Positions 3,642-39,244 of a stretch of 50,320 bases of DNA are shown piece by piece. The translations under genes were made by a program, and so were the position numbers. The DNA is from Candidatus Parcubacteria bacterium (GTDB taxonomy: Bacteria > Patescibacteriota > Minisyncoccia > Phycocordibacterales > JAACPR01). Where the stretch lies: the NCBI GenBank assembly GCA_009995365.1, contig JAACPR010000004.1:1-50320 (forward strand). Direction: 5' to 3'. The notes under the pieces were generated by a model, which saw only the letters and a program-made list of their open reading frames with translations, searched no databases and had not been told where the DNA came from. Position 1 is the first letter of the stretch. Each line of letters starts with the position of its first letter.

Positions 3642-3644
3642 TAG

Positions 3645-7486: not shown

Positions 7487-7562
7487 GTAGATAAGTGCTT
7501 AACAAAAGAGTATTTTAGCGATACTATATAATAACAATTAAATATAAGTGTAAGTACCTAAC

Positions 7563-9108: not shown

Positions 9109-9522
9109 TTAATTTTTATCTTCTTTAAACCAACCAGCTTGCCACTCGAGTATTTTATTTCTTGCTCTCTCAATCTCTAGCTTATTTTTTTCTTGCTCTA
9201 GTTTTTTACGATCACTTCTAATTTTTTCGAAATAATTATTTCTATAAGACGGATGTCTGTGGCCTAACCAATATTTAGTCACACCAATGTCTCCGTTCTT
9301 AATTCCGTTTAGAAGATTATTTTCTGCGTAATCATTTACTCTATCAACACCAAAGAACAAAGCTTTCTCAACTTTATTTTTAAACCGAACGCTTTCTTTT
9401 TGCCATCTATAAATTGAATTTCTAGATATTCCTGCAACATCACAAGCGTGTTCAATAATCGGTGTTTTTTCAAGAGCTTCTAAGAAAGTTTCCTGTATTT
9501 TTTTCTTCCTATCTTTCTTCAT
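9109..9522 (-). CDS. HTH DNA-binding protein (phage small-terminase / transposase-HTH-like)
   Basis: ACDVAGISRNSIYRWQKES is a helix-turn-helix. The gene overlaps the ParB-MTase gene by 14 nt. Confidence 0.5.
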   Translation of the reverse strand: MKKDRKKKIQETFLEALEKTPIIEHACDVAGISRNSIYRWQKESVRFKNKVEKALFFGVDRVNDYAENNLLNGIKNGDIGVTKYWLGHRHPSYRNNYFEKIRSDRKKLEQEKNKLEIERARNKILEWQAGWFKEDKN

Positions 9523-10783: not shown

Positions 10784-10869
10784 AATAACAACAATTAATA
10801 TTCCCATAAGGAACATGAATTAATAATTTCATTTTATTTTAGTTGTTACTTATACTCTCTATCTAAGTG

Positions 10870-14167: not shown

Positions 14168-16351
14168 ATGAACAAAAACAGTATTCCTATCCTGTGGGCA
14201 TCTGCTAGTGTTTCTAGCAACAAAACAACTTTCAATACTCTCAGTAAAGAAGTTGTTGTTGATGCTCCAGGTCCAGTAATCAAACAAATCATCAGTCTCT
14301 GCGATGGTAGTAAATACCTAAAAGAAATTGTTGATTTGCTCGCAAAAGATTGGGATCGTGAATCTATTGAAGGACTTATCAGTGTTCTTATTCAGAAGCA
14401 AGTAATTTTGGATGGTAAAACTCTCGATAAAGAATTCTGGACTTCAATTACCAATCCAATACGTTTCCCGACAAATGTAAGCAACGAGCGTGTTGCTGAG
14501 TTGGTTTTGCAAGCTACTCAAAGACATCGTGAAGAAAGTGTCAAAAAAACTTATCGACCAAGTGTGAGCGATTTGTCGGAACTGATGAGTCACCGAAAAT
14601 CTGTGAGGATTTTTTCAGGAGAATCAATAGGCTTTCAAACAGTTGTTGATCTCTTGTGGAGTGCTTACGGAGAATGTCTGACTAAAGACGGAAAATCTCA
14701 TAGATCAATTCCGTCCGCTGGCGCACTTTACCCTCTGATTATTCATGTTGGCTTGTTTGTAAAAACAGGTGAACTTAAATCTGGAGTCTATCGTGTTGTC
14801 TATGGTCAGGACGGATCAGTTGGGTTCAATCTCGTGTCGACAGATATATTGAGGTTTGCCAGAGCTTTCTTGAGTCCTGCTGGTATTCAAGAAGGGATTC
14901 ATGGAGTTATTACAATTAGTGGTTCGTTTTCAGTATCGAATCAAAAATACGGTAACCGTAGCATGTTGTATGTTCCGATTGAAGCTGGGCATTCTGCTCA
15001 GAATATTCTCTTGGAAGCAACACGGCAAAACGTGGCAACTCTCGAGATTGGAGGGTTTGTAGATGAGCTTTTGGCAAAATCTATTGAACTTCCAGAGGAT
15101 TACCATCCTCTCACTCTGGTGGCTTTTGGTAAGGAAAAAGAGCAATCTTATTCTAAACTAGAGCCATCTATCGAGATCGATTGGGCGATTCCAATGGTAC
15201 AAGGTTATAATCCTGGTTTTGCTATTGCGTCAGTTCGTTTATCAAAAGAACGGATCTGGTCACACGGCAGAGATCCGTCTCCTGAGATGGCTTTGAAAAA
15301 AGCAATTTCAGAAACTAAGGAGTGGACATCTTGTGGGTGTGTTCCCGAACTGACATATTCAACATTTGGTGAGTTGGAAAATGCTATCGATCCTCGAGAG
15401 ATTATTCAATTCCATCAAAGTCAGTATCGGATTAAAGGTTTTCCATTTGTGTCGTTTGATGAAAGTGTGAGTTACGGATGGACTAAGGGGTATGATTTAG
15501 CAGGTAAAGAATTTTATATCTGTGCTGATCAGGTTTATTTCCCTTATTTTCCTGACACACCCTGTTTTTGCTACTCGAATTCTTCGGGTTGTGCGGCACA
15601 TCCAGATCGACAGACTGCGATTGAGACAGGAACGCTTGAGTTGGTTGAGCGTGACGCTTTCATCAATTCATATTTCTGCAAACTCGATAGACCTTATGTC
15701 GATACAGATACGCTTCCTGATTCAATTGAGAAGCGAATCCAAGACTTGGAGTCTGCAGGGTTTAAAGTTTGGGTCATTGACCACTCTCTTGATCTAGCAC
15801 CAGTTGTGTTTGTCTTTGCACAAAACGAAGACATTCACTATTCTACTTGTGCTTCGTGTTCGAGTTTCGATATTGAACACGCTGTCAGTCATGCACTTAT
15901 GGAGGTTGAGGCTTCGGTCTTACACCGACTTCAGCACGGAAAGCCTGACGAGATTAAACCAAATGAGGTTATCTGGCCAAACGATCATGGTAAGCTTTAT
16001 GGACAAAAGCAATTTTTCCAGAGGGCTGACTTTTTGGTCGAAAGTTCAAAGAGGATCTCTTTCCGAGAAATCGGTGGTTTCTCAGCTCTGACTTGGTCAG
16101 AACTCCTCGATCGTTTTGAGAATAAGGGTTGGAAGCACCTAGTGGTTCCACTCAAACTCTCTGATGATTATGGTGGCAACGGTGATTCGAATATCGTTCG
16201 TGTAATTGTTCCCGGGACTGTTCAGATGACCTTTGGTTATCGACAAGAACCTGCGGGCATGAAACGACTCTACGACATTTCCGAAAGGTTTGGTAATGGA
16301 AGAAGGCTGTCTTATGGGCAGTTAACTAAATTTCCTCATCCTTTCGAGTGA
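14168..16351 (+). CDS. fused RRE-like / SagB-type FMN dehydrogenase / YcaO cyclodehydratase
   Basis: - N-terminus: PGPVIKQIISLCDGSKYLKEIVDLL is PqqD/RRE-like.
- SagB motifs: RKSVRIFSG, IPSAGALYPL, NQKYGNRSMLY (Lys-Tyr), EAGHSAQNILLEA.
- YcaO motifs: SNSSGCAAHPDRQTAIETGTLELVERDAF and the C-terminal FPHPFE (PxP tail). Confidence 0.85.
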   Translation: MNKNSIPILWASASVSSNKTTFNTLSKEVVVDAPGPVIKQIISLCDGSKYLKEIVDLLAKDWDRESIEGLISVLIQKQVILDGKTLDKEFWTSITNPIRFPTNVSNERVAELVLQATQRHREESVKKTYRPSVSDLSELMSHRKSVRIFSGESIGFQTVVDLLWSAYGECLTKDGKSHRSIPSAGALYPLIIHVGLFVKTGELKSGVYRVVYGQDGSVGFNLVSTDILRFARAFLSPAGIQEGIHGVITISGSFSVSNQKYGNRSMLYVPIEAGHSAQNILLEATRQNVATLEIGGFVDELLAKSIELPEDYHPLTLVAFGKEKEQSYSKLEPSIEIDWAIPMVQGYNPGFAIASVRLSKERIWSHGRDPSPEMALKKAISETKEWTSCGCVPELTYSTFGELENAIDPREIIQFHQSQYRIKGFPFVSFDESVSYGWTKGYDLAGKEFYICADQVYFPYFPDTPCFCYSNSSGCAAHPDRQTAIETGTLELVERDAFINSYFCKLDRPYVDTDTLPDSIEKRIQDLESAGFKVWVIDHSLDLAPVVFVFAQNEDIHYSTCASCSSFDIEHAVSHALMEVEASVLHRLQHGKPDEIKPNEVIWPNDHGKLYGQKQFFQRADFLVESSKRISFREIGGFSALTWSELLDRFENKGWKHLVVPLKLSDDYGGNGDSNIVRVIVPGTVQMTFGYRQEPAGMKRLYDISERFGNGRRLSYGQLTKFPHPFE

Positions 16352-20175: not shown

Positions 20176-23100
20176 ATGGAAAAAATAATAGATAATAAAA
20201 AAACTAGGATAATTGATGTCTTAAAGAGTGGTATTAAAAAAGATTCAAAATTATCTATTATCTCTGCTTACTTCACAATTTATGGTTTTGATAAATTAAA
20301 AGACCAGTTAGAAAATATCGACAGTTTAAAATTTCTATTTATTGAACCAACTTTTATAAAAGAAAAAGAGGAAAAAAGAGAATTTTATATTAATCGTAAA
20401 AATAGAGAGAAACAGATTTCTGGTACAGAATATGAAATTAAATTAAGGAACGAACTTAGACAATCTGAAATTGCAAAAGAATGTGCAGAATGGATTCGTG
20501 AAAAAGTTGAATTTAAGTCTCTCAAAAAAACAGATACTTCGAGTGCTAGAACAATTAATGTTCAGAATTCAGACGGATCAAATTTCGTTATAAATGGTCA
20601 AATGGATTTTACCGCATCAGGTTTAGGAGTGACTCAATCCAAAAAGTATGAAATACACAGCTATTCAGATGAAAAAAATGCAACCACCGAAGCACTAAGT
20701 TGGTTTGATGAAATTTGGGATAACGAAGAATTGGCAGAAGAAGTCAAAGATGAAGTTCTGAAAAATATTGAAACAATTTATAATGAAAATACACCTGAAT
20801 TTATTTACTTTGTAACTCTTTATAATATTTTTAGAGAATATTTAGATGACTTAGCAGAAGAAAACATAATTAAGCCAAAAACAGGATTTGCTGAAACAAA
20901 AGTCTGGAATAAGCTATATCAATTTCAAAAGGATGGAGTTATGGGTGCAATCAGTAAATTAGAAGATCATAATGGTTGTATTATTGCTGACAGTGTTGGA
21001 CTTGGAAAAACTTTCGAGGCCTTGGCGGTTATTAAATATTACGAATTAAGAAATCACCGAGTTTTAGTTTTATCCCCTAAAAAATTGCGGGATAACTGGA
21101 ATATGTACAGGATGAATGATGTAAGAAATATTCTGTCAGAAGATAGATTTGGTTACGATATCCTAAATCATACAGATCTAAGTCGTGAGAAAGGTATGTC
21201 TGGTGATATAAACATTGAAACAGTAAATTGGGGTAATTACGATCTAATTGTAATTGACGAGTCTCACAACTTTAGAAATAACGATCCACGAAAAGGAAAG
21301 AAAACTCGGTATCAAAAATTAATGGAAGATATTATTAAGAGTGGAGTTAAAACGAAGGTTTTGATGCTGTCTGCTACTCCTGTTAATAATAAAATGACCG
21401 ATTTAAAAAATCAGGTCGCCTTTATAACAGAGGGAAATGATAGGGCACTTTCTGAATCTGGAATTCCTAGTATTCAAGAAACTTTAAGGGTTGCTCAATT
21501 AATTTTTAATAAATGGCAAGACAAACCCATAGCAGAAAGAAAACTAGAGGACTTACTAAAGTCATTTAATATTAATTACTTTAAGTTGTTAGACACCCTA
21601 ACCATTGCCAGATCTAGAAAACACATAGAAAAATATTATGATCTAACAGAGATAGGTAAATTTCCAGAAAGATTAAAACCCGAAAATAAAAAATCTGGAG
21701 TCGATCTTAAAAACGAATTTTCTGATTTTAATGAAATAAATAATACAATTAGTAAATTAAAACTTTCTATATATTCTCCACTTCAGTATGTTTTACCTAA
21801 TAAAGTTAAATATTACGAAGAAAAATACGATATGGTTGTTAATGAAGGCCAATCTAGTTTTAAACAATCTGATAGAGAGAAAAACATTGTAAATCTAATG
21901 AGAGTTAATATTCTAAAAAGACTTGAAAGTTCTGTTTATTCATACAATTTAACTCTAAATAAAATTGATTCAAAGATAACCAATGTATTAAATAAAATTG
22001 AAAACATTAATGAAAATGATTTTTTCGAGACAGACTCAGAAGATCAAGAAGAAAGTATTGACGGAGATGACGAACAACTGGAATCAATGATGATTGGCGA
22101 CAAAATTAGAGTCTCATTGAAGGATATGGATTTAGTTAGGTGGAAAGAAGATTTAGAAGATGATCATCAGAAATTTCAGGAACTAATTAATCAGTCAAAA
22201 ACTATTACACCAAAAAGAGATGAAAAATTGGATACATTAAAGAAAATTATTACAGATAAAATTAAAAATCCAATAAATGACGGTAATAATAAAATTTTGA
22301 TTTTTTCTGCCTACGCTGATACTGCAAATTACCTCTACGATAATTTATCTGATTGGATCAAAGAAGAATTTAAAATTCATACTGCTCTCGTTACTGGTGG
22401 AGGTTCGAACAAGGTGACATCAAAATTAATTCCTAATCATTTTGATTCAGTACTAACTAACTTCTCACCAATCTCAAAAGAAAGAGACAAGATTTATCCT
22501 GATCTTAAGGATGAAATTGATATTTTGATTGCTACAGATTGTATTTCAGAAGGTCAAAACTTGCAGGACTGCGATTGTTTAATTAATTACGATATTCACT
22601 GGAACCCAGTTAGGATTATTCAACGGTTCGGTCGAATTGATCGTATTGGTTCTAAAAATGACAGAGTTAAGTTAATTAACTTTTGGCCCGATATGGAACT
22701 CGAATCATATATTAAATTGGAGCAAAGAGTTAGAGGTAGAATGATGCTTCTAAATACCTCTGCTACTGGAGAAGAAGATTTAATTAATGAATCTGAACAA
22801 GAAGTAATGAATGATATTGAGTACCGTAAAAATCAACTAATGAAGCTTCAAGAGGAAATAGTTGACCTAGAAGACGTGTCAGGAAACATTTCGATTACAG
22901 ACTTAACTATGAATGATTTCAGAATGGATTTGGCTTCGTATATGAAAGAACACAAAGACGAGTTAGAAAATGCACCTCTTGGCATGTATGCGGTTGCTGA
23001 TAAAAAATTACTTGGAGAAAATATTGAATCTGGAATAATTTTTGCTCTAAAACAGGCGAATTTTTCGGAATTAGAATCTAAAGAAGTAAATGCTATTCAT

Positions 23101-23433
23101 CCATATTATATGGTTTATATTCAAAATGATGGTCATGTAAAATATGGTTATACTCAAGCGAAATATGTTTTAGATATTTTTAAAAAATTATGTAATGGAG
23201 TTGATGATGTAAATAAAGATTTAACAAAAATATTCAATTCTGAAACAGATGATGCAAGAGATATGAAAGAGCAATCTAGATTATTAGAAAAAGCCGTTCA
23301 AAATATAATTGGTAAAAAACAAGAGACAGGAGCGTCTGAATTATTTAGTCTTGGAAAAACAACAATTGCCCAACAAAGCTTATTAAATGGTCTAGATGAT
23401 TTTGAATTAGTGTCATTCTTAATTATCAAATAA
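20176..23433 (+). CDS. SNF2-family helicase with an N-terminal PLD-like region
   Basis: Motif I DSVGLGKT, motif II VIDESHNFRN, motif III LSATPVNN, motif VI QRFGRIDRIGS. Confidence 0.9.
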   Translation: MEKIIDNKKTRIIDVLKSGIKKDSKLSIISAYFTIYGFDKLKDQLENIDSLKFLFIEPTFIKEKEEKREFYINRKNREKQISGTEYEIKLRNELRQSEIAKECAEWIREKVEFKSLKKTDTSSARTINVQNSDGSNFVINGQMDFTASGLGVTQSKKYEIHSYSDEKNATTEALSWFDEIWDNEELAEEVKDEVLKNIETIYNENTPEFIYFVTLYNIFREYLDDLAEENIIKPKTGFAETKVWNKLYQFQKDGVMGAISKLEDHNGCIIADSVGLGKTFEALAVIKYYELRNHRVLVLSPKKLRDNWNMYRMNDVRNILSEDRFGYDILNHTDLSREKGMSGDINIETVNWGNYDLIVIDESHNFRNNDPRKGKKTRYQKLMEDIIKSGVKTKVLMLSATPVNNKMTDLKNQVAFITEGNDRALSESGIPSIQETLRVAQLIFNKWQDKPIAERKLEDLLKSFNINYFKLLDTLTIARSRKHIEKYYDLTEIGKFPERLKPENKKSGVDLKNEFSDFNEINNTISKLKLSIYSPLQYVLPNKVKYYEEKYDMVVNEGQSSFKQSDREKNIVNLMRVNILKRLESSVYSYNLTLNKIDSKITNVLNKIENINENDFFETDSEDQEESIDGDDEQLESMMIGDKIRVSLKDMDLVRWKEDLEDDHQKFQELINQSKTITPKRDEKLDTLKKIITDKIKNPINDGNNKILIFSAYADTANYLYDNLSDWIKEEFKIHTALVTGGGSNKVTSKLIPNHFDSVLTNFSPISKERDKIYPDLKDEIDILIATDCISEGQNLQDCDCLINYDIHWNPVRIIQRFGRIDRIGSKNDRVKLINFWPDMELESYIKLEQRVRGRMMLLNTSATGEEDLINESEQEVMNDIEYRKNQLMKLQEEIVDLEDVSGNISITDLTMNDFRMDLASYMKEHKDELENAPLGMYAVADKKLLGENIESGIIFALKQANFSELESKEVNAIHPYYMVYIQNDGHVKYGYTQAKYVLDIFKKLCNGVDDVNKDLTKIFNSETDDARDMKEQSRLLEKAVQNIIGKKQETGASELFSLGKTTIAQQSLLNGLDDFELVSFLIIK

Positions 23434-23434
23434 A

Positions 23435-24175
23435 ATGGAAGATAAAATCATAAAAATATTTAATTTAGAAAAAGAGGTAGTTCAAAATAGAAAAATCAAA
23501 AGTATTTTTTATGAACACGAAAAATTTAATGCAGAAAAGAAAAGATTATTTGATGATGCAGTAGAAAATATAAAATTAGTGGGGCTATTTAATGACGACA
23601 CAATTAACATTCCAAAATATAAAGACGAAGAGTTTTTATATGAAGAGATATATTTAATCCATATAGAGTTAAAAGATAAAAAGCAATATACTCGAGTTGT
23701 GAGTGTAATACATGAATTTATAGAAAATCCTGTAATTTTAGTTTTAAGTTATGAAAAAGAGATTCAGTTATCTGGTTCCATAACTAGAATTAATAAAAAA
23801 ACCCAAGAAAAAGGAATAACAGAAGATCTATTTCAAACACCGTGGATCAGTATCGATGATGAATCAGTAAAATATTTAGATACCAAGAAATATTCATACG
23901 AATCATTAAAAAAGTTTTATGAAGAATATCTGCGTGTAATGTTATGTTTTAATTTAGTTGAAATTATTGGAGAGTTTAAATATGTACCAAAATACGCTAT
24001 ACTAGACCTAAGAGTAATTATTGAAAAATACGCTTTATTAAAGGCTCAGATTGACTCTCTGAAGCAAAACCAGAAGCAATCAGTAGGTTTTGGAGATAAA
24101 GTAGAAATTCAAGAAAAAATTATTAAATTACAGAAGGAATTAGAAATCATTAAACAACAAGTAAAAGAATTATGA
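23435..24175 (+). CDS. DUF4391-like protein
   Basis: The position between the SNF2 helicase and the methylase, plus size and composition, fit DUF4391. The assignment is from memory of that gene neighbourhood, not from a motif. Confidence 0.4.
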   Translation: MEDKIIKIFNLEKEVVQNRKIKSIFYEHEKFNAEKKRLFDDAVENIKLVGLFNDDTINIPKYKDEEFLYEEIYLIHIELKDKKQYTRVVSVIHEFIENPVILVLSYEKEIQLSGSITRINKKTQEKGITEDLFQTPWISIDDESVKYLDTKKYSYESLKKFYEEYLRVMLCFNLVEIIGEFKYVPKYAILDLRVIIEKYALLKAQIDSLKQNQKQSVGFGDKVEIQEKIIKLQKELEIIKQQVKEL

Positions 24176-26067
24176 AAAAACTAGACGGCAAATCAAAAGA
24201 TATCTTAGATGATAATGTTTCAAAAATAAGAGAAATGTTTCCAGAAGTATTCGAAGAGGGGAAAATAGATTTTGAATATCTTAGAAAAATACTTGGGGAT
24301 GCGGTTGATTCTAACAATGAAAAATATTCTTTTACTTGGAATGGAAAATCCGATGCTATCAAAACTGCTCTAAAACCTACCACTGCAACATTGCGGCCTG
24401 ATAAAGAATCTAGTAAAAACTGGGATACTACAGAAAACTTATTTATAGAAGGGGACAATTTAGAAGTATTAAAGGTTCTTCAAGATTCTTATAGGAATAA
24501 AGTAAAGATGATTTATATTGATCCTCCGTATAACACTGGTCACGACTTTGTTTATAATGACAAGTTTAATGATACTGTAGAGGATTATAAAGAGAGAACA
24601 GAGCAGGCAATGATGTCTAATGCAGATTCAAGTGGTAGATATCATACTAATTGGTTGAATATGATGTACCCAAGACTTCGCTTGGCTAGAAATCTGTTAA
24701 AAGATGATGGGGCTATTTTTATTTCCATTGATGACAATGAGGTTGCCAACTTAAGAAAAATTTGTGATGAGATTTTTGGTGAAAATAATTTTGTCAACGC
24801 TATAGCTGTTAAAATGAGTGAAACTTCTGGGGTTAAAATGAGCCATTCAGATAATAGATTACCTAAAATAAAAGAATATGTATTAATTTATTCTAAAAAT
24901 TATAAAAAAATTAATTTTAATTCAGTTAAATTACATAAAAGTGATGAACCTAAAAAAATAGAAAAATATCTTAAATATTATTCCAAAATTATAGAAAACC
25001 TAAATGACGATCCATCTAAATGGTCTATTATTGACATAAAAAAATATATTGAAAAAAATAGTATAGAAATAAAAGATGATAGTGAGTTAAATGAATTTAA
25101 ATTTAAGAATGCTAATAGGATTGTTTATAGAACAAATAATAAGGCTTTTGAAGGTTTAAAATTTGATAATCCTATTAATAAAGTTATTTCTTCTACGGGG
25201 ATTGAGTATATATGGTGGGAAGGTAAACAAATGCTTTTTCTTTCTGATTATTTAGAAGAAGGTTTGTGTGATCTATGGACACATATTTCAACTATTAATA
25301 TAAACAAAGAAAGTCATGGGATACCTACTTACATCAATGGACAAAAACCCAGGGAATTAATAGAGTTATGTGCAAGTTTAGTCTTAGATCAAGATGACCT
25401 AGCGCTTGATTTTTTTGCCGGATCAGGTACAACGGCAGATGCTATTTTGAAATTCAATACGGATAATGATAGAAAAAATAAATTTATAATGGTTCAAATA
25501 CCAGAAAAGATCGAAACAACATCTGGAATGAATTCTAAGACAAAAAACACAACAAAACAGTTAATGAGTTTTCTAGATGAAATTAATAGGCCACATTTCT
25601 TAACAGAGATTGGTAAAGAAAGAATTAAAAGATCTAATAATAAATTTAAACAACCATTTGAAGAATGTAGAGGTTTTAAAGTTTTTAAATTAGATTCAAC
25701 AAATCTAACTCAATGGGATTCACAAACAGAAGATTTAGGAAAAACTCTTGAAGAATCAATTAATTCTGCAAAATCAGATAGAACACAGGAAGATGTCCTG
25801 TATGAAGTATTATTGAAATATGGAATAAACCTAACGACTCCTATATTAGAAGAAGAAATAAATGATAAAAAAATATTTTCTATCGCGGGAGGGTTTTTAC
25901 TAGTCTGTTTAGAGAAAGATGTTGATTTAGATACAATTTCAAAAATTGCAGAAAAGAAACCTGAAAGAGTTGTATTTTATGATCACGGATTTAAAGATGA
26001 TATGACGAAACTTAATGCAGAACAGACTCTTAAAAAGGCTGGTGTTGAGGATATAAGAATTATTTAA
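24172..26067 (+). CDS. type III Mod-like N6/N4 DNA methyltransferase
   Basis: Motif IV MIYIDPPYNTG precedes motif I LDFFAGSGTTADA (beta-class order). The start overlaps the upstream stop as ATGA. Confidence 0.85.
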   Translation: MKKLDGKSKDILDDNVSKIREMFPEVFEEGKIDFEYLRKILGDAVDSNNEKYSFTWNGKSDAIKTALKPTTATLRPDKESSKNWDTTENLFIEGDNLEVLKVLQDSYRNKVKMIYIDPPYNTGHDFVYNDKFNDTVEDYKERTEQAMMSNADSSGRYHTNWLNMMYPRLRLARNLLKDDGAIFISIDDNEVANLRKICDEIFGENNFVNAIAVKMSETSGVKMSHSDNRLPKIKEYVLIYSKNYKKINFNSVKLHKSDEPKKIEKYLKYYSKIIENLNDDPSKWSIIDIKKYIEKNSIEIKDDSELNEFKFKNANRIVYRTNNKAFEGLKFDNPINKVISSTGIEYIWWEGKQMLFLSDYLEEGLCDLWTHISTININKESHGIPTYINGQKPRELIELCASLVLDQDDLALDFFAGSGTTADAILKFNTDNDRKNKFIMVQIPEKIETTSGMNSKTKNTTKQLMSFLDEINRPHFLTEIGKERIKRSNNKFKQPFEECRGFKVFKLDSTNLTQWDSQTEDLGKTLEESINSAKSDRTQEDVLYEVLLKYGINLTTPILEEEINDKKIFSIAGGFLLVCLEKDVDLDTISKIAEKKPERVVFYDHGFKDDMTKLNAEQTLKKAGVEDIRII

Positions 26068-26069
26068 TT

Positions 26070-26432
26070 ATGGATAAAGAAATTCAGAAATTTATATTAG
26101 AATCTCTAAAAAAAAGAAATTATTTAGATCTTGAAAAGACTATAGTTGAAGATGTAAGTAAAACAGTATGGAAAGAGAAAAAACCAATACCAGCAGACAA
26201 AATTGTGAAGCATAATGCTAAAATGTTAAATGATAAAGGGTTGATACATTTTGTGGATAACCAAGTAGGACGATACTATCAGATGACATTACAAGGTAAA
26301 AGGACTTTTGATCCTTGGCACAAAAAAGCTTGGTATTGGATTTTATATGATAAAAATAATCTTTATACGATATTGTCTGTTTTAATATCTTTAACTGCAA
26401 TAATTGTGTCGGTAATTGCACTAAATAAATAA
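26070..26432 (+). CDS. small protein with a C-terminal TM anchor
   Basis: The C-terminal helix is LYTILSVLISLTAIIVSVIAL. The N-terminus may be wHTH-like. It lies between the mod-like and res-like genes with 2-nt and 1-nt gaps. Confidence 0.4.
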   Translation: MDKEIQKFILESLKKRNYLDLEKTIVEDVSKTVWKEKKPIPADKIVKHNAKMLNDKGLIHFVDNQVGRYYQMTLQGKRTFDPWHKKAWYWILYDKNNLYTILSVLISLTAIIVSVIALNK

Positions 26433-26433
26433 A

Positions 26434-29424
26434 ATGTTAAAACTTAAATTTGATCCAAATCAAGAATACCAAAAAATAGCAATTGACTCGATTGTGGATA
26501 TTTTTGATGGACAATCTCTAAGAAGATCAAAGTTTACCGCTAGTAAAAACAACCAAGGAATTTTTGGTGAAATAACTGAATTAGGTTACGGAAATAAACT
26601 AGATTTATCTGAATCAGATTTATTAAATAATGTAATTAAGATACAAGACAGAAATAAATTAAAGAGAAGTAAGAAGATAAACGATGAATTGTATGGAGTA
26701 CCAAACTTTGCCATTGAAATGGAAACTGGTACTGGAAAAACATATGTTTATACCAGAACTGTCTTTGAATTAAACAAAAAATATGGTTTTACAAAATTTG
26801 TAATTGTAGTCCCAAGCGTCGCTATTCGTGAAGGTGTTTATAAATCGCTACAAGTAACAGAAGATCATTTTAATAAATTATATCCGGGGCAAGGTTTCAA
26901 TTATTTTATCTATGATTCAAATAATTTAAATCAAGTGCAATCCTTTGCAACTAGTTCTGATATTGAAATAATGATTATTAACGTTGATGCTTTCAGAAAA
27001 AGTTTTGAAGATGAAAATAGTCAAAATAAAGCTAATATCATTCACAAACCAAATGATAAACTAAGTGGCAGAAAGCCCATTGAATTTATTCAACAGACCA
27101 ATCCTTTTATAATAATCGATGAACCTCAATCTGTAGATAATACTGATAAATCAAAAGAAGCGATTAAATCACTTAATCCTTTGGCTATTTTTAGATATTC
27201 TGCAACTCATAGAGATGCATATAATTTAATGTATAGACTGGGGCCTGTTGAAGCTTATGAAAATAAATTAGTTAAAGCAATCGAGGTTGTCGGTATAGAA
27301 AATGAAAATAATCTTAAACTTATCTCAGTTAGAAATAATAATGGTTCATATACAGCCAAAGTTGAATTAAAGAAAATAAATGAAAAAGGTGTCGAAGTTT
27401 CAAAACAAGAAACGGTTAATTCCGGAAGAAAGAATAATCTATTTGAAATTTCAAATCAAAATGCAAAATACGAAGGAATGGTTGTTTCGAATATAAGTGC
27501 GATTCCGGGCAATGAATATATTGAATTTGAAAATGGGGAAATTTTAAAACTTTCAGATGATTCAACTGATTTAGATCACAAAAGATTTCAAATTAGATCA
27601 ACTATTGAGACACACCTAGATAAAGAAATGTATTTATTGAAGAAAAATATCAAAGTCATTTCTTTGTTCTTTTTGGATAAGGTACATAATTATAGGGAAT
27701 ATATTGAAAATGATAATGGTGAAAAGATTGTCGAAAAAGGTCAGTACGCAAAAATCTTTGAGGAAGAATATTTAAAATTAATTAAATCTCCAAAATACAA
27801 AACTCTTTTTGATGATCAGAATCTAAGAGATTTCATGTTAAATGAGAACGTTGATGAAATACACGACGGATATTTTTCTCAAGATAAAAAAGGTGTTTTA
27901 AAAGATTCGAAAGAAAAAACCACTAAAGCCGACGAAGATACTTTTGAATTGATTATGAAAGATAAAGAAAGATTATTGAGTTTTGATACTAAATTAAGAT
28001 TTATTTTCTCTCACTCAGCCCTGAAGGAAGGTTGGGACAACCCAAATGTCTTTCAAATCTGTACTTTAATCGAATCACAAGATACGCTAACTAAAAGACA
28101 AAAAATAGGTCGTGGGTTAAGACTACCTGTTGATCAAGAGGGTGAGCGAATACAAGATGAAATTATAAATATTTTGACAGTTTTTGCTAATGAAAGTTAT
28201 GAATCTTTTGCTGAAAACCTTCAGAAGGAAATTGAATCTGAAACTAATACAAAATTCGGCGTTATTGATGAAAGATTATTTGAAAATATTTTGAATAAAA
28301 AAGATGAAAACCATATTGAAGAAATTGGTTATGATACTTCAAAACAAATTCATGATTATTTAGTGGAAAATGGTTATCTTGATCCTAATGAAAAAGCATC
28401 TAACAAATTGAAAGAAGAATTAGTTGAAGAGACATTTAAAATGCCGGAAGAGTTTTCAGATATTGAAAAAGATGTCATTGATCTGATTAAATCTAGAATA
28501 AAAAGGCTACCAATATTTAAAAAATCTGAAGAAAAGAAAACTTTGAATAAAGAAGTATTATTAAGTGAAGACTTTAAACAACTGTGGGATAAAGTTAAAT
28601 ATAAAACTGTGTTTAAATTAGATTTTAATGTCGATGATTTTGTTGATAATGTAGTAAAAGAAATAAAACTTAATTTAGGAAAGATCGAAGTGAGCCCTAT
28701 AATTGCGAAGTATGTAAACTTAAGAATACAACAAGAAGGAGTTACAACTACTGATCCAAATAAAGTTCGAAAATATGCAAAAGAAAACTATAAAGAAAAA
28801 GAATTACCTAATGTAGTGGAGTTTATTGAAAAATATACAAGATTGAAAAAAGAAACTATTGTAAAAATCTTGAAAGATTGTGGTCGTCTAGATGATTTCT
28901 ATGTTAACCCTCAAACTTTCATGACTAGAGTAGTTGATGTTATCAATCAACAAAAAAGATTAATTATGACTCATGGAAAAGGAGTTAAATATGAAAAAAT
29001 TGGAGAACATGAATTTTACTCTCAAGACCTATTTGAAGACGATGAACTAATTGGGTATATAACATCTAATGCAATTCCTGTAGATAAAAGTGTTTATTCC
29101 CATATTATTTATGATTCTGAAGTAGAGAAAACTTTTGCAAATAAAATGAATGAAGATAGAGATGTAAAATTATTCGTTAAGTTACCTAATTGGTTTAAAA
29201 TAGATACTCCTCTCGGGTCATATAACCCTGACTGGGCAGTCGTTTTTGATAAAAACGGAGAAGAAAGACTATATTTTGTTTTAGAAACTAAAGGAAGTAT
29301 TTTGTCTGAAAACTTGAGATTTGTTGAAGATGTAAAAATTGAATGTGGTAGGAAACACTTCGAGGCTATTGATACTGGAATAAAATTTGAAAAAGCTGAT
29401 GATTATGATGAGTGGAAAAATTAA
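26434..29424 (+). CDS. type III restriction Res-like helicase-nuclease
   Basis: Motif I EMETGTGKT, motif II IIIDEPQS, SF2 motif VI QKIGRGLRL, and a C-terminal PD-(D/E)xK core YNPDWAVVF...YFVLETKG. Confidence 0.85.
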   Translation: MLKLKFDPNQEYQKIAIDSIVDIFDGQSLRRSKFTASKNNQGIFGEITELGYGNKLDLSESDLLNNVIKIQDRNKLKRSKKINDELYGVPNFAIEMETGTGKTYVYTRTVFELNKKYGFTKFVIVVPSVAIREGVYKSLQVTEDHFNKLYPGQGFNYFIYDSNNLNQVQSFATSSDIEIMIINVDAFRKSFEDENSQNKANIIHKPNDKLSGRKPIEFIQQTNPFIIIDEPQSVDNTDKSKEAIKSLNPLAIFRYSATHRDAYNLMYRLGPVEAYENKLVKAIEVVGIENENNLKLISVRNNNGSYTAKVELKKINEKGVEVSKQETVNSGRKNNLFEISNQNAKYEGMVVSNISAIPGNEYIEFENGEILKLSDDSTDLDHKRFQIRSTIETHLDKEMYLLKKNIKVISLFFLDKVHNYREYIENDNGEKIVEKGQYAKIFEEEYLKLIKSPKYKTLFDDQNLRDFMLNENVDEIHDGYFSQDKKGVLKDSKEKTTKADEDTFELIMKDKERLLSFDTKLRFIFSHSALKEGWDNPNVFQICTLIESQDTLTKRQKIGRGLRLPVDQEGERIQDEIINILTVFANESYESFAENLQKEIESETNTKFGVIDERLFENILNKKDENHIEEIGYDTSKQIHDYLVENGYLDPNEKASNKLKEELVEETFKMPEEFSDIEKDVIDLIKSRIKRLPIFKKSEEKKTLNKEVLLSEDFKQLWDKVKYKTVFKLDFNVDDFVDNVVKEIKLNLGKIEVSPIIAKYVNLRIQQEGVTTTDPNKVRKYAKENYKEKELPNVVEFIEKYTRLKKETIVKILKDCGRLDDFYVNPQTFMTRVVDVINQQKRLIMTHGKGVKYEKIGEHEFYSQDLFEDDELIGYITSNAIPVDKSVYSHIIYDSEVEKTFANKMNEDRDVKLFVKLPNWFKIDTPLGSYNPDWAVVFDKNGEERLYFVLETKGSILSENLRFVEDVKIECGRKHFEAIDTGIKFEKADDYDEWKN

Positions 29425-32440: not shown

Positions 32441-33235
32441 TTAAATTTTTATTGCTTTTGAATTAGTAAGTTTCTCTAATCTTTTAACTATTGTTAAAAA
32501 ATATTTTTCATCTATCTCAATCCCAATACACTTTCGACCTAAGTGTTCACAAGCAAGAGCGGTAGAACCACTTCCAAGAAATGGATCATATACAACATCA
32601 CCAATTTTTGTATTGTCAGGAATTATTCGTCTTAATAATCCAATAGGTTTTTGGGTTGGATGAAGTTTAGATCGTTGAGGGCGTGGATAATAGATGACAT
32701 TTTTAGATTTAGACCTTTCCATTTTGTGCTTTCCAAACCAGCCATAAGCAATAAGCTCATATTGTGATAAATAATCTTTTCTACTCATAACTGGTTGATT
32801 TTTTAACCAAATCAGCATTTGTCCATAACGAAAACCAAGTTTTTGCAAACCACTTCGTAGTGATGGAAACATTGAGTCGCCATTAAAAATATAATAGGCG
32901 TTATGTGTTTCAAGATAGGGAATTACAGGCTCAAGATATTTTTGAGTAAATATCTCATATTCTGATTCTGTTTGGATATGGTCATTCAAAATTATCTTAT
33001 CTTCACTTGATGATAATTTAGCAAAATCCTTTTTATTCTCTACGTATGCAACGCCAAAAGGTGGGTCGGATAGAATTATTTTAATTTTTGCTTTACCAAT
33101 TACTTTTGAGACAAATTCTTGATTAAGTGAATCACCGTAACCAACAATATGATGTCCAATTTTATATATTTCTCCTTTATTTATTTTCATATATTTTTTG
33201 TGCTTTAAGTCCAGTAAATTTTTCCCATCGCTCAA
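32441..33235 (-). CDS. N6/N4 DNA methyltransferase
   Basis: Motif IV ILSDPPFGVAY precedes motif I VYDPFLGSGSTALACEHLGRKCIGIEID. The start may instead be Met at 33190. Confidence 0.85.
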   Translation of the reverse strand: MSDGKNLLDLKHKKYMKINKGEIYKIGHHIVGYGDSLNQEFVSKVIGKAKIKIILSDPPFGVAYVENKKDFAKLSSSEDKIILNDHIQTESEYEIFTQKYLEPVIPYLETHNAYYIFNGDSMFPSLRSGLQKLGFRYGQMLIWLKNQPVMSRKDYLSQYELIAYGWFGKHKMERSKSKNVIYYPRPQRSKLHPTQKPIGLLRRIIPDNTKIGDVVYDPFLGSGSTALACEHLGRKCIGIEIDEKYFLTIVKRLEKLTNSKAIKI

Positions 33236-34448
33236 TCACTATAGTTGCGAAAACGGGATCTTTCTCAACTCCTCTCCATACGCGATTCAATTCTTCACAG
33301 GCAATCAGGTCAGAACCACCTCCCGCAAAACCAGAGAAAATAATATGTCCGGGTGCAGAGCATCTTTTGAAGGGCTTTTCATTTAATGAAACTGGCTTTT
33401 GAGTAGGGTGTAGATAGTTTTGTGTGTTGTCTCTTTTGACTAACCACAAATCAATCATGTCTTGGATTTCGTCTAATACTTGATTGCCAGATGTTACTTC
33501 TTGATTAAGAATTTCATTAGCATTTCTAAAATTTTGATTTAAGTATGGCTTATTTAGAGTTCCATAGGTACAGGGATCGTATACACGATTCCATGCGACC
33601 TTTGGAGTACAATTCTGATTCGATTTTACCCAGAAGCAGACACGTCTTTTTTTAATTACGTGCTTGTCGAATAGTGATTGTGTTAATCCTATTGAATTTG
33701 GGTCTGACCAGTAAAAGAAATGCGAATCTGGTTTGGCAAATTTCTTAGCTGTTTCGATACTTTTATCGATGAATTCTTGATATTCTTTTTCACTTTTATT
33801 ATCTTTATATTCGCCACCATATTTTCCTCCATAATTCCACGAAATATTGAACGGCGGATCCTGAAAAATTACATGTGCTAGTTCGTCATTCATCAACGTT
33901 TTGACTTGTTTTTCATCAGTAGAATCTCCGACCAATAACTTATGTTGTCCTAACTGATATATTTCTCCTGATTTCACTTTAGCAACAGGGGTTTCCTTGA
34001 TGGCTTTTCCTAAATCAAAATTATCCTCAGTTAATTCAATGTCATCAAAGAAATTTTGTAATTCTTCATCTCCAAAACCAACATCAAGAAGCATATCCAT
34101 ATCGAACTCTTTAAGTAATTCTTCACTCCACGAACCAACATTTTTATTCAATCTTAAACATAGTCTTTTTTCTTCATCTAGACTTAATTCTCGAGAAGGA
34201 ATCATACAGTCAACTGTTTTAAATCCTTTTCTTTTATAAATGTTGTATCTTTTTTCTCCACCAATTATAGTTTTATCTCTTGATCCAATATTTAGAACGA
34301 TTGGAACAACTGATCCAAATATACTGATTGAATTATCTAAATCCTGGTCATCTTTTTCATACATTTTATTTGGATTGTATTCATTTGGAATTAAATCCTT
34401 AATATTACATTTAACGTGCGTCCATTTAATTTTTTGTTTATTTTTCAT
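33177..34448 (-). CDS. ParB-like nuclease domain fused to a DNA methyltransferase (paralog of 9509-10783)
   Basis: IIGGEKRYNIYK is ParB-like. Motif IV is IFQDPPFNISW and motif I is IFSGFAGGGSDLIAC. It shares YGTLNKPYL and RRVC.W.K with the other copy. Confidence 0.8.
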   Translation of the reverse strand: MKNKQKIKWTHVKCNIKDLIPNEYNPNKMYEKDDQDLDNSISIFGSVVPIVLNIGSRDKTIIGGEKRYNIYKRKGFKTVDCMIPSRELSLDEEKRLCLRLNKNVGSWSEELLKEFDMDMLLDVGFGDEELQNFFDDIELTEDNFDLGKAIKETPVAKVKSGEIYQLGQHKLLVGDSTDEKQVKTLMNDELAHVIFQDPPFNISWNYGGKYGGEYKDNKSEKEYQEFIDKSIETAKKFAKPDSHFFYWSDPNSIGLTQSLFDKHVIKKRRVCFWVKSNQNCTPKVAWNRVYDPCTYGTLNKPYLNQNFRNANEILNQEVTSGNQVLDEIQDMIDLWLVKRDNTQNYLHPTQKPVSLNEKPFKRCSAPGHIIFSGFAGGGSDLIACEELNRVWRGVEKDPVFATIVIERWEKFTGLKAQKIYENK

Positions 34449-36885: not shown

Positions 36886-37602
36886 CTACTTTCTCCTGAG
36901 TGAAACCAGTGCCAAGGCACCAATTCCAAAGAGTAAAGCGTACATGCTCGGTTCTGGAACAGAACTGTTATTAACCGCGAAGACCGTATATGTCCACTCC
37001 TCTTTGGAACGATTGCCAAAAGTATCAATGAATAAGCTACCATCAATCGTGAAATCCGCGATATTATCAGTTTTCTGATCATCGTAGAATTTGAAAGCGG
37101 CAAAGTCGTTAATCGAAGCATCAACGATACTCATATCATTGATGTCATCTCCATCATATTGATGAGAGTTAACGCTGATAGTGTCGCGATCATCTCCGCT
37201 AATAATCCGCAACCCAACCCAAATCTCATTGAATGGATCGGTGATGGCTATTTCGCTACCTAATGTAGTGTTAACACCAGCAGCAGAGACCGATAGATTG
37301 TTGGCAGAGTCTACTGCAACGGTAAACGAGTTGCTTCCTCCATTGACCCATGACACATCTTCTGTGTAATACGGGTCGTTATCAGAGAAAGTTCCTGTGC
37401 TACCACCGAACTCGAATTCGTGAGTATCAGTACCAGTAGTACCGGTACTGCCGGCTTGGAGCTGGGCGTACCAGACACGATCATCGCTATCAAAAGCAGT
37501 TACGAATTCACTGAACGAAATACCAGCGGTCACGACCGGAGCCGAGAAAAGCGCATTCACAAGGAACACGCTGATTAAAATAGCAAAGAATTGCTTTTTC
37601 AT
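36886..37602 (-). CDS. secreted protein with a PEP-CTERM-type sorting signal
   Basis: Signal peptide MKKQFFAILISVFLVNALFSA. The C-terminus VPEPSMYALLFGIGALALVSLRRK has the PEP motif, a TM helix and a basic tail. The gene is visibly GC-richer than its neighbours. Confidence 0.65.
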   Translation of the reverse strand: MKKQFFAILISVFLVNALFSAPVVTAGISFSEFVTAFDSDDRVWYAQLQAGSTGTTGTDTHEFEFGGSTGTFSDNDPYYTEDVSWVNGGSNSFTVAVDSANNLSVSAAGVNTTLGSEIAITDPFNEIWVGLRIISGDDRDTISVNSHQYDGDDINDMSIVDASINDFAAFKFYDDQKTDNIADFTIDGSLFIDTFGNRSKEEWTYTVFAVNNSSVPEPSMYALLFGIGALALVSLRRK

Positions 37603-37715: not shown

Positions 37716-37950
37716 CCCATTGTTTGGTACATTCAACCTTTAACTGCGACACTTTCGTTAAACCCTTCTAAATGGGTTCTCCACTCAAGTCGTTTTCTAT
37801 GACGATTATTTAAAAGAGTATTAACTTTTAGGCTTAGAGTACGTAATACCTACCCTGACAAGCTTCGCAAGGTCCGAATATTAAGCTATAACATAACTAG
37901 AATTTTAGCCTTGATAATGCTAAAATTCACATTGACAATAAAGATCTAAA

Positions 37951-38179
37951 CCTTGTGTAAGGCATGGTCGGAATATGCAAATCCGCTACAGTATAGAAGG
38001 CTCCTCATCGGAGTCACTGTAGCGGTTATGTTAGGGAAACTTAATATAGACACTTTCGGGTGTCGCAACGGTGAGGAGCCTTTTGTCCAAGGCTCATATC
38101 TCACTATTTACTAGTTTACAACTTTTCGATGAATTATTTTTAAAGAAAAGTTAAAGAAAAATAAAACCGCTACAGTACT
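37951..38179 (+). ncRNA. candidate structured cis-regulatory leader RNA, copy 2
   Basis: Elements in order: 5' hairpin CCTT-GTGT-AAGG; CATGGTC; segment a 37983-37992; b 37997-38010; a' 38016-38027; GGGAAAC 38034-38040; a UUCG-capped hairpin 38049-38064; b' 38069-38082; a repeat of segment a at 38165-38176, 3 nt before ATG 38180. Confidence 0.6.
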
Positions 38180-39244
38180 ATGCCAATAATAATTTCAAAA
38201 AACGGCGAAAAAGCCGTTAAAGTTGATAAATCTTCTTTTGATAAAGAGGATCAACTACAACAATATATATACGACAATCCAGGGAGTATTCCTTTGTATG
38301 ATATTAATGAAGATATTAAATTACTAATACTAGCAAGAGAATTTTCAACTAACAGTGGCCCTATTGACGCTATTGGTTTTGATCAAGACGGAAATATTTA
38401 TATTGTAGAAACTAAATTATATAAAAATTCCGATAAACGAATTGTAGTTGCTCAAGCTCTAGATTACGGAGCATCAGTCTGGAAGAATGTAAATAACTTT
38501 GAAGATTTTCTAACTCAATTAAATAAACATACACAAGATAAATATAAGATATCCGCTAGTGAAAAATTGCAGGAATATTTTAGTTTGTCAGACGAAGAAT
38601 TAGAAACATTATTATTTAATATCAAGAATAATTTGAGTGATGGGGTAATTAAGTTTGTAATTCTTATGGATGATTTAGATTCAAGATTAAAAGATTTGAT
38701 CTTATACGTTAATCAAAATAGTCAATTTGATATTTATGCTGTTCAATTAGAATACTACAAACACGAAGACCGTGAAATAGTTATTCCTAGATTATACGGA
38801 GCAGAAGTCAAAAAAGATATTAATGTTTCAAAATCATCTAGCTCAAGGAAAATTTGGACAGAGGAGACTTTTATTGAAAATGCAAAACAAGAAATGACAA
38901 AGGAGGAATATGAGGCAACTATGAAAATATATAATTTCTCTAAACAAAAGGCTGATGAAATTAGATTTGGGACAGGGAAGAATTATGCATCATTTAGTCC
39001 AATCTTTAAATCTATATCAGAAAAATCCCTTTTCACTGTTACAACAGACGGCAGACTAAGTCTTAATTTTGAATGGGTTTATAACGATAGACCAGAATCT
39101 GCAAAATGGTTCAAAGAAGAACTTGAAAAGATTGGTTTTGAAATAGATGAAAATTATATCAATATTCGCCCAAGTGTTATGCCGGATGTGTGGTTGGGTA
39201 AGGTTGAGGGGTTTGTGGGGATGTTTGAAAAAACTATGGACTAA
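38180..39244 (+). CDS. NucS/DUF91-like PD-(D/E)xK nuclease-fold protein with a C-terminal extension
   Basis: EDQLQQYIYDNPGSIP...LLILAREFSTNSGPIDAIGFDQDGNIYIVETKLYK...VVAQALDYG follows the NucS-like endonuclease domain pattern. Confidence 0.55.
   Translation: MPIIISKNGEKAVKVDKSSFDKEDQLQQYIYDNPGSIPLYDINEDIKLLILAREFSTNSGPIDAIGFDQDGNIYIVETKLYKNSDKRIVVAQALDYGASVWKNVNNFEDFLTQLNKHTQDKYKISASEKLQEYFSLSDEELETLLFNIKNNLSDGVIKFVILMDDLDSRLKDLILYVNQNSQFDIYAVQLEYYKHEDREIVIPRLYGAEVKKDINVSKSSSSRKIWTEETFIENAKQEMTKEEYEATMKIYNFSKQKADEIRFGTGKNYASFSPIFKSISEKSLFTVTTDGRLSLNFEWVYNDRPESAKWFKEELEKIGFEIDENYINIRPSVMPDVWLGKVEGFVGMFEKTMD

Follow-up and report, generated by a model that had tools for sequence, protein, structure and literature searches.

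A second LOOT RNA in a Parcubacteria contig, found as a leader before a phage-defence-candidate gene and possibly able to alternate between two folds

The LOOT motif was first described in 2017 by comparative genomics (Weinberg et al., NAR 45:10811, PMC5737381) and is held in Rfam as RF03000, where it is typed as 'Gene; sRNA' (sRNA, small RNA). Mentions of LOOT in searchable text are limited to the Rfam release papers and one CaCoFold paper, in which 28 'cross-covariations' were noted for the motif. Here we describe a LOOT RNA encoded on the forward strand of contig JAACPR010000004.1 of a Candidatus Parcubacteria bacterium, where it directly precedes the gene of a 354-amino-acid (aa) protein; the whole stretch analysed, 50,320 nucleotides (nt), is referred to as the window. 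A scan of the whole window returned two Rfam matches, both of them to LOOT and each full-length over model positions 1-121, namely one at 37943-38064 (copy 2), which scored 49.9 bits against an RF03000 gathering score of 46.4, and one at 7555-7675 (copy 1), which reached 80.5 bits. Our own covariance model R1, which was built from 50 sequences and includes the 3' tail, gave 106.7 bits for copy 1 and 85.2 bits for copy 2. In common with the described family, the window copies have a P1 internal loop of the CCUAAA/CAUGG type, a long P2, a GAAA-capped P3 and a P4 hairpin. The leader RNA that a preliminary description of this DNA, made from the letters alone, had listed as a second copy without recognizing it as LOOT is a true second copy and adds a new member to the known family.

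The leader of copy 2 and its gene are made up of the following elements, given in order along the window.

37918-37926, forward strand: candidate extended -10 box TGCTAAAAT of what we take to be the leader's own promoter, with the identical AATGCTAAAATTC present in the homologous locus L217.
37935-37942, forward strand: degenerate copy, ACAATAAA, of the box ACAAYTNAATA that is conserved before P1; probably the 5' end of the transcript.
37943-38064, forward strand: LOOT core according to Rfam, with P1 at 37943-37969, P2 at 37983-38025, P3 at 38027-38048 and P4 at 38049-38064.
37946-37967, forward strand: internal loop of P1, UCUAAA / CAUGG, resembling the 11-nt GAAA-tetraloop receptor.
37983-37992, forward strand: arm a, CCGCTACAGT, the 5' strand of the lower helix of P2.
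37993-38010, forward strand: segment b, the apical half of P2, consisting of an A-rich bulge, a short apical hairpin and its loop; able to form 14-18 bp with b'.
38016-38027, forward strand: arm a', ACTGTAGCGGTT, the 3' strand of P2, able to pair with a over 10 bp and with the start-proximal copy of a over 12 bp.
38036-38039, forward strand: GAAA tetraloop of P3, the proposed partner of the P1 receptor-like loop.
38049-38064, forward strand: capped P4 hairpin, GACACT-TTCG-GGTGTC.
38069-38086, forward strand: tail composed of b' and a short U-run, CGGTGAGGAGCC-TTTTGT, beyond the Rfam model.
38089-38095, forward strand: element c, AAGGCTC, which repeats the start of b further downstream and in the minimum-energy fold can pair with b' at 38076-38082 and leaves the U-run in the loop.
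38120-38152, forward strand: extra spacer hairpin of 8 bp, AACTTTTC...GAAAAGTT, between tail and start site, predicted in the minimum-energy fold and specific to a sub-lineage.
38165-38176, forward strand: start-proximal copy of arm a with an A-rich lead-in, AACCGCTACAGT, at the Shine-Dalgarno position, 3 nt before the ATG at 38180.
38180-39244, forward strand: gene presumed to be controlled by copy 2, encoding the 354-aa protein, a phage-defence candidate whose N-terminal part carries a PD-(D/E)xK-like motif.

The Rfam model stops at P4 (38064 in copy 2), so that four elements fall beyond its limits: the box before P1, the tail formed by b' and the U-run, element c and the start-proximal copy of a. 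None of these four is described in searchable text. The coordinates that the preliminary description had assigned to a, a', the start-proximal copy, b, b' and the capped hairpin all agreed with the sequence. Its 'perfect' 14-bp b/b' helix (37997-38010 with 38069-38082) does pair over 14 bp, although one of these pairs is a U-G wobble, and the helix can be extended to 18 bp (37993-38010 with 38069-38086). Exact occurrences of CCGCTACAGT in the window number three, two on the forward and one on the reverse strand, compared with an average of 0.26 in dinucleotide shuffles with one mismatch allowed. Folding of the core gave a z-score of -5.0 and that of the whole leader (37943-38200) a z-score of -6.75, with none of 200 shuffles being as stable. 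The spacer hairpin at 38120-38152 is common to the window and locus L213 and is absent from most LOOT leaders.

Relatives of the leader were collected by two pattern scans of species-representative genomes, which yielded mostly Patescibacteria (Parcubacteria, Saccharibacteria and others). A 15-base P1 pattern used alone returned mostly chance matches, with about 11 real LOOTs per 120, and the yield rose once the P3 GAAA loop was added. A further 80 loci encoding the 354-aa protein were fetched with an alignment query, while a single-protein query had retrieved one locus. Model R1 was then run on all loci in place of a regular-expression and stem parser that missed about a quarter of the LOOTs; its scores were bimodal, with real members at 47 bits or above and noise at 30 bits or below, and gave 96 distinct full-length LOOTs. 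About 40 of these 96 come via loci of the 354-aa gene, and the gene-unbiased subset (n = 55) is reported apart. Pair counts for the helices refer to a model-based alignment of 41 LOOTs. Other metagenome copies of the copy 2 locus were identical over 302 nt, from 37881 to the ATG, and therefore contribute no covariation. Six real LOOTs were present among the first 100 pattern matches in IMG/VR viral contigs, which gives no sign of a phage association.

Analysis of the flanking regions revealed a fixed placement of LOOT in front of genes. In 71 of 89 LOOTs, an open reading frame of at least 60 aa starting with ATG began no more than 60 nt downstream on the same strand, versus 2 of 83 in a divergent-strand upstream control, and the gap between U-run and ATG had a median of 36-37 nt (interquartile range 27-45). 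A second promoter would not fit into a median gap of about 36 nt, so that transcription of the gene must pass through LOOT. On the upstream side, the box ACAAYTNAATA, likewise beyond the Rfam model, was found 9-30 nt before P1 in 48 of 92 LOOTs, and 7-12 nt further upstream these 48 loci carry a TAnnAT box, often with a TG in front. ACAAYTNAATA is thus located just downstream of a -10-like box; it is probably the 5' end of the transcript. At copy 2 itself, a generic sigma-70 scan returned only a site with 9 of 12 matching positions, TTGATA-17-GACAAT, at 37911-37939. A separate promoter or a leaderless start within the spacer was considered and rejected on account of the short gap and because no -10-like box is found at the start-proximal copy. 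The arrangement is consistent with a unit in the order promoter, short 5' box, LOOT, tail, start site and gene, and indicates that LOOT is a promoter-proximal leader rather than a free-standing gene. Two characteristics of cis-regulatory leaders were found here, a fixed position and orientation upstream of a coding region, in what would be one transcript, and conserved, presumably mutually exclusive pairings that involve the terminator-like tail or the start site.

The helices that underlie these pairings are well conserved. The lower P2 helix a:a' was 99.5% paired with double-sided changes at 10 of 10 pairs, and b:b' was 90.9% paired over 16 pairs with double-sided changes at 15 of 16, the b:b' columns having been picked on the same alignment on which they were counted. 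None of 500 shuffles matched the observed helix values, and slid controls were 37-48% paired. P3 and P4 were 99.4% and 92.2% paired, respectively, and every pair in them changes on both sides among the 41 relatives. RNAalifold applied to a plain MAFFT alignment predicted b:b' de novo with covariation, as exemplified by column pair 88/179 (GC 17, CG 14, AU 12, UG 4). Wobble pairs of the U-G type in b:b', P3 and P4 establish the strand and identify these elements as RNA helices. Across the LOOTs, the consensus of the tail, b' followed by the U-run, reads GGCGGGCUUUUUGU. Element c appears to be a feature of a subset with modest enrichment, given that a Watson-Crick helix of at least 7 bp between b' and the next 36 nt was found in 15% of LOOTs versus 4.7% of permuted pairs. 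The a:a' helix is hypervariable yet nearly pure Watson-Crick: the 851 pairs in the 96 LOOTs comprise 848 Watson-Crick pairs, 2 G-U pairs and 1 mismatch, whereas G-U pairs account for 16.7% of P3 and 18.3% of P4 in the same RNAs. This scarcity holds for LOOTs with and without a start-site copy. The a arms form recurring sequence families across unrelated genomes.

The P1 loop reads CCUAAA/CAUGG in 56 and CCUAAC/UAUGG in 19 of the 96 LOOTs, so that 75 of 96 carry a near-canonical version of what we take to be the 11-nt GAAA receptor motif, CCUAAG/UAUGG. P3 ends in a GAAA loop in all 96, the P4 loop is variable (GCAA, UUCG, GAAA and others), and the invariant nucleotides of LOOT are confined to the P1 internal loop and the P3 loop. 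Docking of the P3 GAAA on the receptor-like loop of P1 is plausible and would hold P2 together at its base, where control could plausibly be exerted. A ribozyme was set aside, the conserved nucleotides lying only in these two loops.

An additional element connects arm a with the start of the gene. An exact 8-13 nt copy of a, situated within 40 nt of the ATG and ending 0-11 nt before it, was detected in 32 of 93 LOOTs versus 0.5% of permuted pairs, in a set that includes the loci picked through the 354-aa gene. The 32 start-proximal copies represent 20 distinct sequences, usually with an A-rich lead-in. Further exact 10-nt copies in the 632 kb of loci amounted to 16 direct ones, all of them start-proximal, and 2 inverted ones elsewhere, which is chance level. 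Orthologues of the 354-aa gene carry at least nine forms of the triple of a, a' and copy, e.g. CCGCTACAGT, CCCGCTAGAG, CCATCCAAGG, CCGTTGCAGG and CGCAAGCAAC. A truncated LOOT without arm a in L213 differs from the window in both a' (GCTGTAGTAG) and the copy (CTACTACAGC), and this joint change constitutes direct covariation between a' and the start site. A Shine-Dalgarno-like motif was present in 2 of 32 genes with a copy versus 17 of 61 without, the copy occupying that position, and in many LOOTs lacking a copy the ATG follows the U-run after 1-22 nt. Judged by these comparisons, the start-proximal copy is a selected feature of a LOOT subclass. The proposal of the preliminary description that the leader sits directly before genes and that its a' can pair either with a or with the start-proximal copy was borne out, the three-way relation of a, a' and copy having persisted despite sequence change in many genomes. 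Comparison of whole LOOTs with start regions by RNAduplex was uninformative, as the null distribution was broad and b' overlaps nearby start sites, and exact-copy statistics were used in its place. A target-site duplication was also rejected, since the first a lies inside the structured core and is matched by a'.

Two loci deserve separate mention. At L213:1317-1650, a complete LOOT is fused in tandem to another that has neither P1 nor arm a but whose a' still matches the start-site copy; the arrangement suggests recombination between LOOT units. At L227:2149-2180, the start region AAATCCATCCAAGGAGT-ATG matches the arm a of the LOOT in L221 and not its own arm a, CGTTAGGTAC, which could reflect a swapped leader or simply a Shine-Dalgarno region.

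Energy calculations for copy 2 depended on how much of the leader was included. The core alone adopted the Rfam structure as its minimum-energy fold (-43.2 kcal/mol), addition of b' moved the minimum to b:b' (-53.1 kcal/mol), and in the full leader a' was predicted to pair with the start-site copy (38165-38176) and b' with c (-80.5 kcal/mol). Among the 96 LOOTs, the tail-free and a-blocked folds differed by a median of 5.2 kcal/mol and the unconstrained optimum retained a:a' in 46. Of the 32 copy-bearing leaders, 16 were predicted to pair a' with a and 14 to pair it with the copy, and keeping the start site unpaired would cost a median of 2.5 kcal/mol. The closed (a:a') and open (b:b', a' with the start site) folds thus have almost the same predicted energy. 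Since the linkers between a, b and a' measure 0-5 nt, a full b:b' helix would be sterically incompatible with a:a'.

The reading that we favour, and to which we give somewhat better than even chances, is that the LOOT leader acts as a bistable cis-acting 5' RNA gate on termination and/or translation; the alternation of folds, their effects on termination and translation and the tetraloop-receptor clamp are what we infer from sequence comparison and energy models. In the closed fold, a would pair with a' in P2, probably clamped by docking of the P3 GAAA in the receptor-like loop of P1, b' would be free or held by c, and the copy before the AUG would stay single-stranded, permitting read-through and translation. 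In the open fold, b' would invade the apical part of P2 and form a 14-18 bp b:b' helix ending in the U-run, similar to an attenuator, while the freed a' would pair with the copy at the Shine-Dalgarno position, 3 nt before the AUG, and block initiation. In LOOTs without a copy, in which the AUG often stands right behind the U-run, gating might be brought about by b:b' itself over the start region, or by termination. Candidate triggers would be co-transcriptional kinetics, an influence of Mg2+ or temperature on the tertiary dock, or a protein or RNase.

Several points weigh against such a gate. No functional study of LOOT was found in the searchable literature, and no signal or ligand pocket is evident in the motif, the presumed tetraloop-receptor pair accounting for all of its invariant nucleotides. 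The choice of the b:b' columns on the counting alignment makes that count lean towards a helix. A scan for canonical terminators gave no forward-strand call at 38069-38088 or 7674-7693; it missed b:b' because the loop of this helix spans about 58 nt, the canonical loop being 3-8 nt, and the U-run comprises only four U in copy 2 and five in copy 1. Energy models restricted to nested structures cannot score pseudoknots, and a:a' could be compatible with a b:b' core shortened to 8-11 bp. The rate of 32 in 93 for the start-proximal copy is inflated by the loci picked through the 354-aa gene, and the gene-unbiased subset has a copy in only 8 of 55 LOOTs, so that pairing at the start site is not the general LOOT mechanism and the three-way logic of a, a' and copy put forward in the preliminary description stands for the subclass and not for the family. 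Finally, the near-absence of G-U pairs from a:a' is something that neither a simple hairpin nor a simple RNA switch would lead one to predict.

One alternative is that LOOT is a stand-alone trans-acting sRNA with its own promoter and a terminator formed by b:b' and the U-run, the gene behind it being a neighbour or reached by low-level read-through; in a variant, the terminated sRNA would expose a' and repress the downstream mRNA in trans. This would agree with the Rfam type, with the promoter-like box directly upstream, with the G+C-rich helix and U-run at the 3' end and with the calculation that, once b' is included, the b:b' fold is more stable in about half of cases. We nevertheless regard it as unlikely, because the same-strand start codon within 60 nt in 71 of 89 cases leaves no space for a second promoter, the adjacent start site is the one place in the loci where copies of a are found, and the b:b' helix is not a canonical terminator.

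A second alternative, which we hold to be improbable, is a single static pseudoknot in which a:a' and a short b:b' core exist side by side, making LOOT a constitutive 5' element, e.g. one that protects the mRNA from 5'-end-dependent decay or serves a protein or the ribosome as a platform. Covariation reaches into the A-tract:U-tract part of b:b' (column pair 102/238: A-U 24, G-C 12), a helix of 14-21 bp would be incompatible with a:a' given the short linkers, and a static fold leaves unexplained both the covarying copy of a at the start site and the near-equal energies of the a' pairings. In its favour, conservation of the two helices extends to every LOOT, an A-rich strand of 8 nt could be long enough to bridge a b:b' core of 8-11 bp, and the tetraloop/receptor-like pair suggests a compact tertiary fold.

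The strictly Watson-Crick, hypervariable a:a' stem is unusual for an RNA helix and may point beyond an ordinary switch; it may reflect a second partner that excludes wobble pairs, or turnover through templated copying. Taken further, LOOT could be an 'address-coded' gate, in which each copy carries a private Watson-Crick code of 10-12 nt (a/a') that is repeated at the start site of its own gene, an idea that we consider decidedly improbable. The absence of G-U pairs would then mean that DNA, too, serves as a partner for reading a', as it might in an R-loop at the gene start, or that the code is rewritten by templated copying without evolving through point mutation. If true, such an address code would represent a programmable RNA system in Patescibacteria and their neighbours that licenses defence and membrane genes individually.

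It is very doubtful that LOOT is a metabolite- or ion-sensing riboswitch with P1-P4 as the aptamer and b', c and the start-site copy as the expression platform. Such a device would provide for the structured conserved core followed by alternative pairings that overlap the U-run and the start site, and tetraloop-receptor docking is in general Mg2+-dependent; however, the downstream genes (membrane proteins, proteases, restriction-modification and defence candidates) share no metabolic theme, and the restriction of invariant nucleotides to the receptor-like loop and the GAAA loop leaves no obvious pocket. Least of all do we expect a, a' and the copy to be a DNA-level inverted and direct repeat left by recombination, template switching or cassette exchange, with LOOT as a mobile promoter-leader module and the RNA pairing at the start site as incidental, for although the almost strictly Watson-Crick a:a' next to 17-18% G-U in P3 and P4, the L213 chimera of one full and one truncated LOOT, the same a sequences in unrelated genomes and the approximately 60% identity of the 354-aa gene across phyla would suit this extremely unlikely account, the rest of the element is clearly RNA, with wobble-rich b:b', P3 and P4 fixing strand and orientation relative to the gene, the first arm lies inside the structured core and not at a boundary, and the copy is always 0-11 nt from the ATG, which points to selection on the mRNA and misfits target-site duplication.

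Under the bistable gate, the two copies of the window would differ in their default state. Copy 1 and its cassette comprise the following elements.

7499-7527, forward strand: promoter-like site TTAACA-17-TACTAT.
7533-7544, forward strand: upstream box AACAATTAAATA.
7555-7693, forward strand: LOOT core (7555-7675) and b' with U-run (7674-7693), with a at 7592-7603, b at 7611-7623 and a' at 7626-7637.
7719-7729, forward strand: start-proximal copy of a, CGCGACGAACA, directly abutting the ATG at 7730.
7730-8284, forward strand: gene of a 184-aa protein with an N-terminal hydrophobic helix.
8308-9090, forward strand: gene of a 260-aa HSDR_N_2 protein (Pfam 3.2e-7, 30.9 bits versus a cut-off of 25).

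The P1 internal loop reads UCUAAA...CAUGG in copy 2 and CCUAAC...UAUGG in copy 1. The preliminary description had noted a reversed pairing preference in copy 1, and a:a' indeed extends over 12 bp there, compared with a match of 10-11 nt to the start-proximal copy. Its suggestion of different default states also agrees with the minimum-energy folds, which predict opposite resting states, with a' pairing with the start-site copy in copy 2 and with a in copy 1.

The 354-aa protein behind copy 2 matched the PADLOC family PDC-S11 (1.8e-18, 64.8 bits, residues 7-247) as well as PDC-S18 (1.5e-10), its status as a defence candidate being PADLOC's own. Matches to NucS were found in NCBIfam (7.7e-6, residues 20-82, far under its cut-off) and, as NucS_C, in Pfam (0.009, below cut-off). 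A structural model of the protein (mean predicted local distance difference test score, pLDDT, 77.8) retrieved NucS/EndoMS structures 2vld and 5gke as the top Foldseek matches, with a probability of 0.87-0.91, an E-value of about 0.04 and a template modelling (TM) score of 0.2-0.3. A D...E-T-K motif is invariant in 89 homologues, and homologues in total exceed 1484 and are about 60% identical across Patescibacteria. The protein appears weakly NucS-like. Neither the 184-aa nor the 260-aa protein of the copy 1 cassette had a PADLOC match.

Beyond the window, Pfam searches with 48 downstream proteins returned 30 unrelated families, the majority of the proteins being without any match. The families include Trypsin_2 (three), tRNA_anti-like (two), N6_N4_Mtase, Eco57I/MmeI, Mrr_cat, Cap15_CD_rec, Imm_superinfect, DUF4352 and NA-iREase1, and PADLOC also recognized a Type IIG restriction-modification enzyme, a Type III methyltransferase, a 2TM effector and PDC-S36 among the LOOT-led proteins. 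In the unbiased set, an N-terminal hydrophobic segment was present in 38 of 55 proteins (about 69%), which would make them small proteins of the membrane or secreted type, the median length was 157 aa, and nucleases or restriction-modification enzymes stood behind only a few LOOTs. The nuclease-fold support whose lack the preliminary description had named as evidence against it exists at the two window loci, where HSDR_N_2 lies above its Pfam cut-off and the 354-aa protein combines weak NucS matches with a D...ExK motif and PDC-S11. A general link between the leader and nuclease-fold proteins did not hold, most of the unbiased genes encoding small proteins with a hydrophobic N-terminus. No housekeeping genes were found among the downstream proteins profiled, so that the occurrence of homologous leaders before unrelated housekeeping genes, named in the preliminary description as evidence against it, was not seen, while several restriction-modification or defence genes were. 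As a tendency, though not in the sense of a nuclease-fold rule, the idea of 'toxic or defence-type cassettes' can reasonably be upheld.

In L240, L268, L270 and L285, LOOT lies about 500-770 nt before the homologue match at position 2501 and leads a different small gene directly upstream of the 354-aa homologue; the defence-candidate gene would there be the second gene of a LOOT-led operon. Further homologues of the 354-aa protein in Patescibacteria stand behind structured leaders of at least two other types, which end in terminators and have no Rfam match at the gathering score. The first type (L226, L228, L231, L255, L280, L289 and L297) is located about 200 nt before the match at 2501 and has an upstream GGGCAC... 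segment that can pair with the 3' strand of the terminator, which echoes the b:b' logic of LOOT; L241, L242 and L249 are further loci with such other leaders. On one 5-kb contig, L003, two convergent LOOTs at 3618-3763 (+) and 4273-4412 (-) are separated by about 500 nt.

The window itself is rich in restriction-modification and helicase genes (9509-10816 on the reverse, 20176-29424 on the forward and 33177-34448 on the reverse strand). These include three stand-alone N6_N4 DNA methylases, one of them a ParB_N fusion, a 1085-aa SNF2/ResIII helicase, and a Type III-like pair of a 631-aa methylase and a 996-aa Res endonuclease. At 14168-16351 (forward strand), a 727-aa fusion of nitroreductase and YcaO cyclodehydratase suggests a modification enzyme of the RiPP type (ribosomally synthesized and post-translationally modified peptide). 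Upstream of copy 2, at 36886-37602 on the reverse strand, lies the gene of a PEP-CTERM protein, adjoined by that of an N_methyl (prepilin-type) protein (L300:1-164), unusual company for a Patescibacterium.

LOOT has been an orphan motif since 2017, filed as an sRNA, and the present comparison makes a leader role testable. The conserved 3' elements that have so far been left out of the model would couple the main stem of LOOT with the terminator-like tail and, for one subclass, with the start codon as well. LOOT is thereby tied to small membrane proteins, restriction-modification and defence-candidate genes in Patescibacteria, which are hard to culture and whose gene regulation is almost unknown.

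Several known systems share individual features with LOOT. The 11-nt GAAA tetraloop receptor, whose canonical form CCUAAG/UAUGG was reportedly established by Costa and Michel in 1995, differs from the LOOT loop CCUAAC/UAUGG by one change and from CCUAAA/CAUGG by two, and the invariant GAAA of P3 would be a fitting partner; unlike the canonical receptor, LOOT has A or C rather than G at position 6, covarying with the first base of the 3' strand. Type III toxin-antitoxin loci, laid out as ToxI repeats, terminator and toxN, likewise combine a structured RNA, a terminator-like element and a defence or toxic gene under one promoter, but LOOT is a single unit without a repeat array, and the proteins behind it are too varied for a single RNA-protein antitoxin pairing. 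Type I toxin mRNAs are controlled by folding back on themselves, as in hok/sok with its tac, fbi and ucb/dcb elements and in tisB; the start region in their multi-state leaders is held in long-range pairs, which prevents the translation of small membrane proteins that may be harmful. The proposed LOOT gate would resemble them, small proteins with a hydrophobic N-terminus making up about 69% of those behind LOOTs. In contrast to them, LOOT showed neither an antisense RNA gene nor a 3' processing element, has a conserved, putatively tertiary-structured core and also precedes large enzymes. Translational leaders with an anti-Shine-Dalgarno/anti-anti-Shine-Dalgarno pair, such as the thiamine pyrophosphate (TPP) riboswitch of thiM, offer a further parallel, as one strand (a' in LOOT) has two alternative partners, an upstream mimic (a) and the ribosome-binding region; in LOOT, a' resembles an anti-Shine-Dalgarno sequence at its 5' end (CCUU/CUCU) and a resembles a weak Shine-Dalgarno sequence at its 3' end (AAGG/AGAG). 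In contrast to the thiM-type platforms, LOOT would sequester not a conserved Shine-Dalgarno sequence but a locus-specific 'address' of 9-13 nt, in front of genes that belong to no common pathway.

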